This document shows, piece after piece, positions 45,248-47,602 of a stretch of DNA of 64,000 bases (the stretch's first letter is position 1; each line of letters starts with the position of its first letter). The notes under the pieces are model-generated. The model saw only the letters and a program-made list of their open reading frames with translations, was not told the origin of the DNA and did not search any database. The DNA lies in the NCBI GenBank assembly GCA_963815115.1, contig CAWFFN010000012.1, positions 256,001 to 320,000 on the forward strand. The letters are read 5' to 3'. The translations under genes were made by a program, and so were the position numbers. This stretch comes from an uncultured delta proteobacterium (GTDB lineage Bacteria; Desulfobacterota; Binatia; DP-6).

Positions 45248-46117
45248 ATGGCGCAGACGCCTGATGCCCTGGTGCTCGACGTGCTGGCTTCCTACGAAGC
45301 CGAGCTTGGCGAGCGTGAGGTCACGTATGGAAAGGTCGTCGTCCTGTCGCTGGGCGGGCGCATCCGCGGGGAAGAGCCGGTTCCCCAAGGTTCGGTCGTC
45401 GCGTACGTGGCACGCCGTGGAAATCCCGTGCTCCGCACGCTCGTCGCCGCCGCGCGAAAGGGCGACGTGCGGACGATCGCCAAGATTCATACGGACGCGG
45501 GCCGGCGCATCGCCCAGCGTGTGACGGCGCCCTCTCCGAGGCCCAGGCCGCTGGCAGCGGTTCCGGTGCTCGCCGAGCTGCGCTACCGCAGCAAGACGAT
45601 CGCGCGCGCCGTGATGCCGGATGGTCCCTCGGGCGTCGCCATCCGGATCTTTCCCTACAATGGCGGCAAGCTCTACGACGCGGATTTCCGTCTGGCGCAG
45701 TTCAAGCGCGGCGCGAGCGCCGGCGACCTCGAAGCGGTGCTGCTCAAGCGCGGCCCCCAGCTTTCCGCCCTCGAGCGCAGGGTGTTGGCGCAGGTGAGCG
45801 GCGACGCCACGGAAAACAACATCTCCGCCGAGCTGGCGTTCGTCGGCGCCATCGTCAACGCGATCGTCAACGCCGGCAAGGCCGTCTACGCCGCGACCAA
45901 GGCAGCCGTGAACTGGGCCGTCGATCACAAGGTCGGGTTGCTCTTCGCCGCGCAGGTCGTCACCTGGGCCGTGAGCGTCTTTCCGAAATTCTCGACGATT
46001 GCGCGGCAACCCGGAATCTCGGGCGCCGCGGGGCGAGTCCGCCGTGGAGCGTCGGCGCACGAGCTGCTCAAGGCTCGTCGGGAAGCGCTGCTGGGCGAGC
46101 TGAACCGGCGCGCCTGA
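45248..46117 (+). CDS. Putative RiPP/bacteriocin precursor: long leader, hydrophobic amphipathic core, follower
   Basis: SD GAGGAG; residues ~198-246 FVGAIVNAIVNAGKAVYAATKAAVNWAVDHKVGLLFAAQVVTWAVSVFP; first gene of an operon with SdpA-like and HTTM genes. Confidence 0.6.
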   Translation: MAQTPDALVLDVLASYEAELGEREVTYGKVVVLSLGGRIRGEEPVPQGSVVAYVARRGNPVLRTLVAAARKGDVRTIAKIHTDAGRRIAQRVTAPSPRPRPLAAVPVLAELRYRSKTIARAVMPDGPSGVAIRIFPYNGGKLYDADFRLAQFKRGASAGDLEAVLLKRGPQLSALERRVLAQVSGDATENNISAELAFVGAIVNAIVNAGKAVYAATKAAVNWAVDHKVGLLFAAQVVTWAVSVFPKFSTIARQPGISGAAGRVRRGASAHELLKARREALLGELNRRA

Positions 46118-46123
46118 CCGGGG

Positions 46124-46780
46124 GTGGCGACCCACGCTGTCGCGCTCGTGTTCGCCCTCTGGTTCGGCGCGTCCGTGCTGAACCAGCTCGAGGCGACCGG
46201 GTATGCCCCGGCCAAGCGCCTGGCTCTCCTCGTCAAGTCGCTCGATCTCTTCTCGCTCATTCCGACCTGGAACTTCTTCGCTCCGAACCCCGGGACGAAC
46301 GACTACCACCTGCTCTATCGGGAGCGGCTGGATGCCGGCGGGTACGGCGTCTGGAGAGAGGTCCCCTTCCCGAAGCAGTCGGGTCTCCTCAAGGCCGTGT
46401 GGAACCCCCGCAAGCGCCGGGCCAAGGTCCTGTCGGACGTCGTGATCAGCCTCGGAAGCGCCGTCGCCGAGGCCCGCCTGACGGCTCTCGGGCGGCTCGC
46501 GCCTCGGGCCGATGCAGACACCGGAGCCGGGAGCCGAGGGCAGGACGCCGGCGATCGGCGGCGAGACTACGAAGCTCGCCTCTCCCGGCTGATCTCCGAA
46601 GAGCTCCGGCCGCTCAAGCTCTCGATTCCCTACCTGATCGTGCTGAACTATCTGAACGGGCTGCCGCACTCGCCGTTCAGCGACTCGATCCAGTTTCTCT
46701 TCGCGCAGACGGCCGGTTTCGATCCCCATGCCGAGCCCGAGATCCTCTACGTCTCCGAGCCGCACGAGCTCGCATCCTAG
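46124..46780 (+). CDS. SdpA / LinL-like membrane-anchored protein
   Basis: N-terminal TM, 'LIPTWNFFAPNP', 'WNPRKR..K'; directly precedes an HTTM gene. Confidence 0.65.
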   Translation: MATHAVALVFALWFGASVLNQLEATGYAPAKRLALLVKSLDLFSLIPTWNFFAPNPGTNDYHLLYRERLDAGGYGVWREVPFPKQSGLLKAVWNPRKRRAKVLSDVVISLGSAVAEARLTALGRLAPRADADTGAGSRGQDAGDRRRDYEARLSRLISEELRPLKLSIPYLIVLNYLNGLPHSPFSDSIQFLFAQTAGFDPHAEPEILYVSEPHELAS

Positions 46781-46783
46781 ATC

Positions 46784-47602
46784 ATGAATGCGGTCACGGC
46801 GCTGCGCTTCTGTAACGGCCTCGTGCTGGTGGGCGTCGTGCTGACGGCGCTCGAGACGCTGGTCTCACGGCGCGACTATGCGCGCGGGCAGATGCTCGAC
46901 TGGGAGGTGCTGAAGCATTCCTGGGGGTTTGCTCTGCGGCCTCCGCTCGGCCCCTTGCTCGACCGGGTTCTCGGCTATCCGGGCTTCATCCTCCTGGTCG
47001 GGGTTCAGCTGCTCGCGAGCGCGGCAGCGCTCTGGATGCTGCTGCACGGCGGCTGGCCGAGGGGACTCAACTGGGTGGTGTTCGGGCTCGTGCTGCTGTT
47101 CAATTTTCGCAGCGGGTACGGTCTGGACGGCGCCGATCAGATGACGGGCAACGTGCTCGGCGCGCTCTGTCTGGCGGGACTCCTGCCGCAAGATCCGGTC
47201 GCACTCGGGGCCGCCCTCTGGTTTCTCGGGCTGCAGGCGACGCTCTCCTATCTCACCGCCGGGCTCTACAAGATCGCAGGCAAGGACTGGCGCAGCGGCA
47301 CGGGCCTGCTCGGTGTGATCAGCACTCGGAGCTATGGGAGCCCTCGACTCTCGGCGTACCTCGAGAGACATCCGAGCCAGGCGCTGGCGGCGGCCTGGAG
47401 CGTCATCGCCTTCGAATCGCTTTTCCCGCTCGCCATCCTTGCCGGCCCGAAGTGCGCGCTCGTCTTGCTGGGAATCGGCGTCGCGTTTCACCTCGGCAAT
47501 GCCGCCGTCATGGGTCTGAACAACTTCGTGTGGGCCTTCACGGCCACCTACCCGGCGGTGCACTACTGCGCCGAACGCATGCAGACGCTGCTTCGCGGCT
47601 AG
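46784..47602 (+). CDS. HTTM-domain membrane protein (SdpB / LinH / VKGC-like)
   Basis: About 7 TMs; 'YGLDGADQM', 'LQATLSYLTAGLYK....WRSG', 'FESLFP', 'FHLGNAAVMGLNNF'. Confidence 0.8.
   Translation: MNAVTALRFCNGLVLVGVVLTALETLVSRRDYARGQMLDWEVLKHSWGFALRPPLGPLLDRVLGYPGFILLVGVQLLASAAALWMLLHGGWPRGLNWVVFGLVLLFNFRSGYGLDGADQMTGNVLGALCLAGLLPQDPVALGAALWFLGLQATLSYLTAGLYKIAGKDWRSGTGLLGVISTRSYGSPRLSAYLERHPSQALAAAWSVIAFESLFPLAILAGPKCALVLLGIGVAFHLGNAAVMGLNNFVWAFTATYPAVHYCAERMQTLLRG

Follow-up and report, generated by a model that had tools for sequence, protein, structure and literature searches.

A three-gene cassette that pairs a putative split carboxylase-like membrane enzyme with its probable client protein

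A 64,000-nucleotide stretch of contig CAWFFN010000012.1 (hereafter the window) carries, at positions 45248-47602, a compact cassette of three genes that we call g1, g2 and g3. We consider it probable that g1 encodes a dedicated client, or substrate, of a linaridin/SDP-like membrane enzyme made up of the g2 and g3 products, and that the cassette would thus represent a minimal maturation unit. An earlier note on this DNA had read the three genes as an undescribed cassette for a peptide made on ribosomes and modified after translation (RiPP) or a toxin. Overall, that reading is supported by the predicted fold of g3, the linkage of the three genes and the architecture of the g1 family, while a likeness to SdpA, hypervariability at short range and a single leader are not. 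The results do not bear out a released RiPP or a toxin as the product, and a protease, exporter or immunity gene conserved alongside the cassette was not found. The elements to which we refer throughout are the following.

45234-45239, + strand: Shine-Dalgarno sequence of g1, GAGGAG, read directly, 8 nt 5' of the ATG at 45248.
45248-46117, + strand: g1, 289 aa, ATG start, stop included; client/precursor-like protein.
45248-45751, + strand: g1 residues 1-168, predicted alpha/beta N-terminal domain, with a predicted local distance difference test (pLDDT) mostly >90; missing from short forms.
45752-45832, + strand: g1 residues 169-195, helix 'PQLSALERRVLAQV...TENNISAE', common to short precursors; predicted docking element.
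45833-46033, + strand: g1 residues 196-262, hydrophobic, Ala/Val-rich middle segment ('core') that varies from one family member to another.
46034-46114, + strand: g1 residues 263-289, conserved follower 'GASAHELLKARREALLGEL', its motif also found in Bacteroidota and actinobacterial short precursors.
46124-46780, + strand: g2, 218 aa, GTG start; single-pass membrane protein, putatively LinL-type, distant DUF5819.
46784-47602, + strand: g3, 272 aa, ATG start; polytopic membrane protein, predicted HTTM / vitamin-K-carboxylase fold, LinG-type.

The g1 gene is tied to the other two by its linkage to them across bacteria. A pattern search with the g2 alignment yielded 80 loci, whose labels (record titles) cover Acidobacteriota, Bacteroidota (Dokdonia, Pedobacter, Mucilaginibacter, Saprospiraceae, Dyadobacter and Hymenobacter), Chloroflexota, Verrucomicrobiota, Planctomycetota, Myxococcota, Eremiobacterota and many Actinomycetota. 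Of these loci, 78/80 contain a g3 homologue, mostly directly 3' of g2, and the g1-family profile places a full-length g1 family member ending at the g2 start in 15/80, labeled Acidobacteriota, Verrucomicrobiota, Saprospiraceae, Kordia, Phototrophicaceae, Planctomycetales, Thermoanaerobaculia and Solirubrobacterales/Actinomycetota. When all open reading frames (ORFs) of at least 90 aa from these 15 long-form loci and the window were clustered by shared genes, only the g1, g2 and g3 families were common across lineages; the remaining clusters either did not extend beyond four Solirubrobacterales loci that are close relatives of one another or consisted of alternative reading frames. Reciprocally, loci fetched from metagenomes through g1 carry g2 directly downstream in 4/4 cases, with g3 next in the sole contig long enough. 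Homologues of g1 therefore adjoin the same g2/g3 pair from both directions of search. Uniform conservation of g1, or independence from the HTTM pair, had been named beforehand as an argument against the proposal; the linkage held, and the middle of g1 is the least conserved part across the family. The cassette is single-copy in its own genome and g1 is absent from all 40 related genomes searched, 4 of them from the same genus, which makes the cassette an accessory, patchily distributed unit.

Within the window, the ORF list confirms three co-oriented genes with gaps of 6 bp (g1-g2) and 3 bp (g2-g3). As described earlier, they have their own intergenic region and Shine-Dalgarno sequence, with 191 bp between the end of a PIN gene (45056) and g1. 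Each of the three has homologues across phyla; this, together with a codon-position G+C bias (0.84-0.87 at third positions vs 0.46-0.51 at second positions), indicates that they are real genes and not chance ORFs. One operon is the most likely reading of this layout. A sigma-70 scan found 0 promoter-like sites, and a terminator scan found a single site, which lies inside g1 and is not above the shuffled background (mean 1.3).

The AlphaFold2 model of g3 (pLDDT 95.5) has the membrane-domain fold of GGCX, the human vitamin-K-dependent carboxylase. In a Foldseek comparison with the PDB, the best 13 matches are all human GGCX (probability 1.00, query TM-score (TMq) 0.57-0.63, E 2.8e-3 to 3.8e-2), followed by ABC transporters at TMq ~0.2. 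The model thus agrees with the earlier proposal of an HTTM membrane enzyme, for which a Foldseek comparison had been suggested. A g3 profile run against PDB sequences gave 0 matches at E<=1, so the kinship with GGCX is visible only at the level of the fold. Among curated models, g3 scores 27.1 bits against Pfam HTTM (PF05090; cut-off 27.7, E 3.9e-6), over profile positions 144-252 only, and 37.6 bits against the SdpB model TIGR04033 (E 1.8e-9, cut-off 178.4); by these scores it is a distant SdpB relative rather than a member of the SdpB family. The motifs picked out earlier are all present (GLDGADQM, QATLSYLTAGLYKIAGKDWRSG and FHLGNAAVMGLNNF) and sit on invariant or near-invariant columns, namely D115, G116, D118, Q119, Q151, Y156, G160, K163, W169, F235, H236, M243-L245 and F248. 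K163, which is invariant in 34 sequences and followed six residues on by the invariant W169, is a candidate counterpart of the catalytic lysine of GGCX, which we take to be K218. A 2026 preprint describes an HTTM protein partnered with DUF5819 that has Lys189 and Trp195, at the same spacing (10.64898/2026.08.19.745780).

The g2 product has the N-terminal transmembrane (TM) segment reported before, a hydrophobic helix with a Kyte-Doolittle 19-residue mean of 1.82, and contains TWNFFAPNPG. Its 57 homologues share an invariant WxFFAPNPG..DYHLLYR in the family alignment. We found no Pfam match of g2 itself, with none to DUF5819 (PF19136) at E<=10, and no NCBIfam match at E<=0.1. PF19136 weakly matches 25/30 aligned family members (best E 0.0017, below the cut-off), and an actinobacterial member scores 20.5 bits against it (cut-off 27.1). 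The SdpA model (TIGR04034) matches nothing in the whole host genome at E<=0.01, with a control match in Bacillus subtilis. Of the 'SdpA/LinL-like' description given to g2, the LinL half stands, as the family accompanies LinG/LinH in actinobacterial linaridin-type loci, and the SdpA half finds no backing in the sequence. Its members are the genes that follow LinH-like fusions in Streptomyces and occur in LinG/LinT/LinE loci of Actinopolyspora and Amycolatopsis. The actinobacterial g2 loci are of two types, one with an HTTM protein fused to an alpha/beta hydrolase, LinH-like (e.g., L043, 2872-4950), and one in which the HTTM protein, a TIGR02204 ABC transporter and an alpha/beta hydrolase are encoded separately, with the g2 homologue coming after them. 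The LinL-type assignment of g2 is thus a putative one, resting on gene context rather than on a curated model. A charged insertion of ~45-60 aa (g2 residues ~118-165) occurs in the clade of the window and is missing from most family members; the interface predicted below begins at its end, residues 162-178.

Membrane orientation was estimated from charge. Lys+Arg counts place g3 loops 28-66, 110-115, 166-186 and 244-255 on the positive side in 34/34 sequences (means 8.8 vs 1.2); loop 110-115 overlaps the start of the DGxDQ motif (D115-Q119) and loop 166-186 comes just after K163. In g2, the C-terminal flank of the helix is the positive one in 29/30 sequences. Under the positive-inside rule this points to a probable cytoplasmic location for the catalytic-side g3 loops and the globular g2 domain, which would fit a client without a signal peptide.

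The g1 protein is 289 aa long and, as seen earlier, has no Cys, no N-terminal hydrophobic signal (it starts MAQTPDALVLDVLASYEAELGERE) and a C-terminal end of ...ASAHELLKARREALLGELNRRA. It matches no Pfam or NCBIfam family, the SdpC model included. Its relatives numbered 7 in a word-based search; with a full profile search there were 374 cluster representatives at E<=1e-3, of which 163 reached E<=1e-10, and 55 sequences of this set form the family alignment. Pattern searches of species genomes produced 146 matches with the single protein and 8 with a close-clade alignment, 0 of which were confirmed in either case, and the long-form relatives derive solely from the g2-fetched loci and metagenomes. 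The alignment divides into four parts: the N-terminal domain, the helix (PxLSxxE..L..VP...E.N) and the C-terminal motif (L.P.ASA.ELL..RR..L, the "SAxELLxxRR" follower), all of them conserved, and, between the last two, a near-unconserved, gappy middle. Near-invariant residues are P170, L172 and E176 in the helix and L273 and R277 in the follower. By segment, the identity of the window protein to the family is 0.29 (1-168), 0.38 (169-195), 0.14 (196-262) and 0.35 (263-289). The middle varies from 38 to 119 aa across the family; in g1, 40/67 of its residues are A/V/I/L/F/W (~60% by hand count) and 3 in residues 196-262 are Thr. The conserved leader and follower that had been anticipated are present across the family, and the middle between them is its least conserved and length-variable part; at short range, as described below, this middle is not hypervariable.

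AlphaFold2 models g1 with a pLDDT of 81.4, confident for residues 1-195 and the last helix and below 60 in the middle (200-260). The ~195-aa leader proposed earlier is folded in this model; it separates into a domain of ~168 aa, missing from most family members, and a helix of ~27 aa. The N-terminal domain appears to match no recognized fold, which does not in itself make the fold a new one: Foldseek found no match in the PDB at E<=1e-3, VIA-align wide gave a best Z of 2.8, and the ESM Atlas returned nothing usable for residues 1-170. We also considered this domain as a cis-acting protease and rejected the idea, as its invariant columns include no conserved Ser, Cys, His or Asp set.

Long forms such as g1 are the minority. 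Most of the other g2/g3 loci carry short versions of 90-165 aa, sometimes in 2-3 tandem copies, laid out as M..K.LTK.ELAALD.LIA, a variable Ala/Val/Thr-rich stretch and LSLE.LI.LR. These ORFs match the g1-family profile at positions 177-279 only, that is, at the helix, the variable core and the follower. After profile iteration, 71/80 loci have at least one g1-family member in the fetched DNA. By a strict ORF-boundary rule a long form lies directly upstream of g2 in 11/80 and a short form in 29/80, and in 31/80 the member lies elsewhere in the locus, a group that includes four long forms that the profile places right at g2 as well as actinobacterial loci with a precursor 5' of g3. No member was found in the fetched DNA of 9/80, two of which have no room for one (L035, where g2 runs from base 17, and L041, a contig of 1292 bp). 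Two or more short copies, their middles differing, occur in 19/80 loci, with up to three in Dokdonia.

Are the long and short forms one superfamily? Actinobacterial short forms combine PVLFTP or PVLGTP, the PxxxTP junction motif, with the same S..ELL..R C-terminal motif, and a profile built from them alone reaches the Bacteroidota short forms and two long forms. With hhalign, the C-terminal part of g1 aligns to Bacteroidota short forms at 88% over 93 columns and to actinobacterial ones at 89% over only 16 columns, and the actinobacterial forms align to Streptomyces forms at 91% over 79 columns. A link between long and short forms is a reasonable reading of these alignments, resting as it does on short motifs.

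Several loci show how these precursors are arrayed. In Dokdonia (L008, L009, L015 and L019), two or three tandem short precursors with acidic, His-rich middles lie upstream of base 4975; they have a repeated ATPETPE motif, then GG(V/I)(V/I)VD, and a conserved end 'ECSVDELIDLRSSL'. In a Mucilaginibacter metagenome-assembled genome (MAG; L034, 5676-8195), four more ORFs of 120-233 aa 3' of g3 match the short-precursor profile. Eight actinobacterial loci (L021, L027, L028, L033, L037, L038, L046 and L047) have two precursor types each, and all of them except L021, which has one, have two HTTM genes within ~10 kb, which suggests duplicated modules. Finally, L166 (887-2716) carries two long-form g1 paralogues (308 and 299 aa) in tandem 5' of g2, whose segment identities are 0.30 (domain), 0.56 (helix), 0.17 (core) and 0.37 (follower). 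In the L166 clade, the middle of several members contains Cys-Pro motifs (GCPCPGG, DCPLLPG) that are not present in the window g1.

To model the interaction, we ran a three-chain prediction of g3, g2 and g1, each with its own alignment, and scored it against controls. The complex reached 0.64 (runs 0.29, 0.64 and 0.66) against 0.25 for the best control. That mark is attained by 116/157 solved complexes and 2/215 mismatched pairs, a calibration on single-chain pairs that is rough here. The runs share at least 54% of contacts, with a partner pLDDT of at least 62. In the predicted interface, g1 residues 170-190 and 257-285 and loops 48 and 136-139 meet g2 residues 62-79 and 162-217 and g3 residues 41-52; the lowest-error contacts are those of the g1 follower with g2 166, 171, 174 and 212-215 and g3 45. 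This interface matches the parts that are conserved, both within g1 and in the C-terminal portion of g2, and the conserved loops of the N-terminal domain, G48 and Y137-G140, fall within it. The prediction thus supports binding of g1 to g2/g3, as a substrate and as a subunit alike.

Taken together, these results suggest the following mechanism. The g3 and g2 products may assemble into a membrane enzyme resembling a split vitamin-K-dependent carboxylase, and would be the same pair as LinG/LinL of linaridins and, more distantly, SdpB/SdpA, which mature the Bacillus SDP and YIT toxins. The g1 helix (169-195) and follower (263-289), aided by loops of the N-terminal domain, would dock on the g2 globular part together with the first g3 loop, and docking would keep the Ala/Val-rich middle (196-262) at the enzyme for modification, this middle being the presumed modified segment. 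Enzymes of the GGCX type generate a strong base. Since no more than 3 Thr lie in the g1 middle, our first guess for the reaction is a base-driven change at C-alpha such as epimerization, dehydration and carboxylation being alternatives; a study from 2023 that reconstituted CypH/CypL reportedly found epimerization by linaridin enzymes. Afterwards a hydrophobic peptide might be cut out, as with SDP.

The main rival to a client role would make g1 a third subunit of the g2/g3 enzyme or its regulator, a membrane-tethered or peripheral adaptor; the real substrate would then be another molecule, for example a quinone, a lipid or some unlinked protein. We regard this as unlikely, while recognizing that a number of observations weigh against the client reading or suit an adaptor. 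The N-terminal domain of g1 is well folded in the model and conserved, and its most conserved loops lie in the predicted interface. A TM-like helix (Kyte-Doolittle 19-residue mean >=1.6) occurs in the middle of 33/55 relatives, and in L026 (3616-4860, a Phototrophicaceae MAG) a Gln/Asp tract of ~130 aa separates the hydrophobic segment from the follower; such middles could be a mere anchor or linker. Among four close relatives (81-87% identical) the core is 0.85 identical vs 0.82-0.88 for its flanks, so that close relatives show neither rapid diversification of the core nor diversifying selection on it. Neither a protease nor an exporter nor an immunity gene is conserved in the 15 long-form loci, an absence that would be surprising in the case of a released toxin. 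The complex model suits a subunit as well as a substrate and does not place the g1 core with confidence; one of its three runs reached 0.29 only, and the calibration comes from pairs of single chains, not from three chains with custom alignments. The hhalign links between long and short forms lean largely on a motif of ~16-20 residues. Finally, the positive-inside count is crude for long loops, and the orientation that it gives is opposite to that of GGCX, whose active site faces the lumen. Against the subunit stands the composition of the family. Most members lack the N-terminal domain and are 90-165 aa long, with middles that are not TM-like and often acidic or His-rich, as in Dokdonia. Loci can hold 2-3 divergent tandem copies, an arrangement that typifies precursors rather than stoichiometric subunits. 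In Actinobacteria, members have the linaridin junction motif PxxxTP and lie within linaridin-type clusters. We therefore keep the client reading as the preferred one.

If g1 is a client, the cassette could belong to a known class, and linaridins come closest. Their biosynthetic core consists of the precursor LinA together with LinG or LinH, LinE and LinL; the characterized examples include CypA/CypH/CypL of cypemycin and LegE/LegG of legonaridin, and no characterized linaridin is known to have a follower. In a true linaridin cluster, g2/g3 would dehydrate Thr residues of g1 to dehydrobutyrine and the product would be a linaridin, an outcome that we find improbable. In favor of it, g2/g3 are ~28-45% identical (tblastn E 1e-19 to 1e-38) to LinL and LinG/LinH of actinobacterial linaridin-type loci, with g3 matching the HTTM proteins of these loci, hydrolase fusions included, at E 1e-25 to 1e-38. 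A precursor gene lies beside the pair, its core is hydrophobic, and the cluster has no protease gene, as has been remarked of the corynaridin cluster too (PMC9927463). A 2020 RODEO survey, which we follow for linaridin cluster context, credits linaridin enzymes with Thr dehydration, gives a PxxxTP junction and a FANxxL leader motif for the precursors, and places all clusters but two in Actinobacteria (10.1101/2020.07.09.196543). The cassette departs from this pattern in several ways. It has no LinE, LinT, LinD or LinC. No LinE-type alpha/beta hydrolase flanks it in Pfam scans of the neighbors or is conserved in the 15 long-form loci; within the part of the window that was scanned, the sole alpha/beta hydrolase, a DUF900 protein, lies ~14 kb away, and g3, at 272 aa, has no hydrolase domain. 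Unlike linaridin precursors, g1 has neither PxxxTP nor FANxxL and few Thr in its 67-residue middle, and it adds a folded N-terminal domain of ~168 aa and, at the C-terminus, a conserved follower. Nor is the host of the cassette an actinobacterium.

An SdpABC/YitPOM-type cannibalism toxin, with g1 exported and an internal hydrophobic peptide freed from it as a membrane toxin, is the least probable of the explanations. The design is the same, an HTTM protein with a small single-pass partner and a precursor of ~200-300 aa with a variable hydrophobic segment: in the SDP and YIT systems, an HTTM membrane protein and a small partner are needed to turn a ~200-aa protein into a toxin, and the precursor has a conserved N-terminal part and a group-specific hydrophobic segment with SdpAB- or YitPO-dependent processing (PMC6818787). 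Sequence kinship to the Bacillus subtilis systems is nevertheless distant for g3, whose SdpB score lies far under the cut-off given above, and none is detected for g2 or g1. Secretion signals are present in SdpC and YitM but lacking in g1; sdpABC ends with its precursor gene, whereas the cassette begins with it; and sdp and yit come with immunity genes, whereas the cassette has a VapBC-type pair and a methyltransferase as neighbors and no adjacent SdpI/YitQ-like gene. The cassette thus fits neither known class, as had been suspected, with LinE, the precursor motifs, SdpA/SdpC matches, a signal peptide and an immunity gene all not found.

The comparison with GGCX yields both shared and differing features. 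The g3 model matches the GGCX membrane domain, and the follower of g1 is predicted to dock on g2, whose distant family DUF5819 has been proposed as a counterpart of the GGCX clamp: the 2026 preprint models a DUF5819 protein and its HTTM neighbor as a complex resembling whole GGCX, and proposes DUF5819 in place of the clamp that grips the substrate propeptide (10.64898/2026.08.19.745780). Unlike GGCX, the enzyme would be split over two genes, sequence identity is 15-17%, the client has no Glu-rich Gla-like region, and the charge bias of the cassette suggests the opposite membrane orientation.

A bolder extension of the client reading, which we put forward tentatively and hold to be doubtful in its entirety, is that these proteins form a phylum-spanning new class of ribosomal products. 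They would be proteins of 90-400 aa in which an Ala/Val/Thr-rich segment between leader and follower helices is rewritten at the cytoplasmic membrane face by a split vitamin-K-carboxylase-like enzyme, through quinone-driven strong-base chemistry (e.g., many L-to-D epimerizations), the leader of the long forms being a docking domain of new fold. As no exporter, protease or immunity gene travels along, the modified segment might stay in the membrane of the producer as a D-residue element, not a secreted antibiotic. The enzyme pair is already known. In the literature searched there is no description of the cassette, nor of the client family with its follower and large leader domain or the three-gene format lacking LinE.

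The cassette bears on the roles of bacterial vitamin-K-dependent carboxylase homologues and on peptide maturation by LinG/LinL and SdpA/SdpB, and would be the barest form of such a system, an enzyme pair and its client only. Its delimited docking elements and well-folded handle make it a convenient three-gene object for reconstitution, mass spectrometry and cryo-electron microscopy. Linaridin-type machinery, near-confined to Actinobacteria in the 2020 survey, has relatives with their own precursor family elsewhere, in MAGs or isolates labeled Acidobacteriota, Bacteroidota, Chloroflexota, Verrucomicrobiota, Planctomycetota and probably Binatia. This widens the search space for peptide natural products and possibly points to non-antibiotic uses of such chemistry.

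A diderm host is likely, judging by one window gene, a thiolase 79-84% identical to genes of MAGs labeled Candidatus Binatia, which also resembles genes of MAGs labeled Deltaproteobacteria or Myxococcales. Pfam scans of the neighboring genes confirmed the earlier statement that no protease, exporter or SdpI-like gene is adjacent to the cassette; its farther neighbors are assorted metabolic genes. Directly upstream (44347-45056), the gene of a 103-aa Phd/YefM antitoxin shares a 4-bp overlap with that of a 133-aa PIN-domain toxin, the two being a VapBC-type pair; together with the absence of the cassette from the 40 relatives, this pair hints at a mobile or accessory islet. Downstream, at 47649-51393, are a class I methyltransferase convergent to the cassette (47649-48515), a B12-binding radical SAM protein and a PhyH dioxygenase. 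The methyltransferase matches PF13649, the family used for LinM, and all three are possible tailoring genes; in close relatives the contigs run out inside g3 or shortly past it. Farther upstream, 41663-44213 holds two tandem paralogues (438 and 410 aa), neither at the Pfam threshold and one with a sub-threshold TIG match (E 0.005), which have signal-like N-termini, are Cys-rich and share blocks such as 'GDC(P/A)PFD..PGNQ.CDLP.G.YG'.

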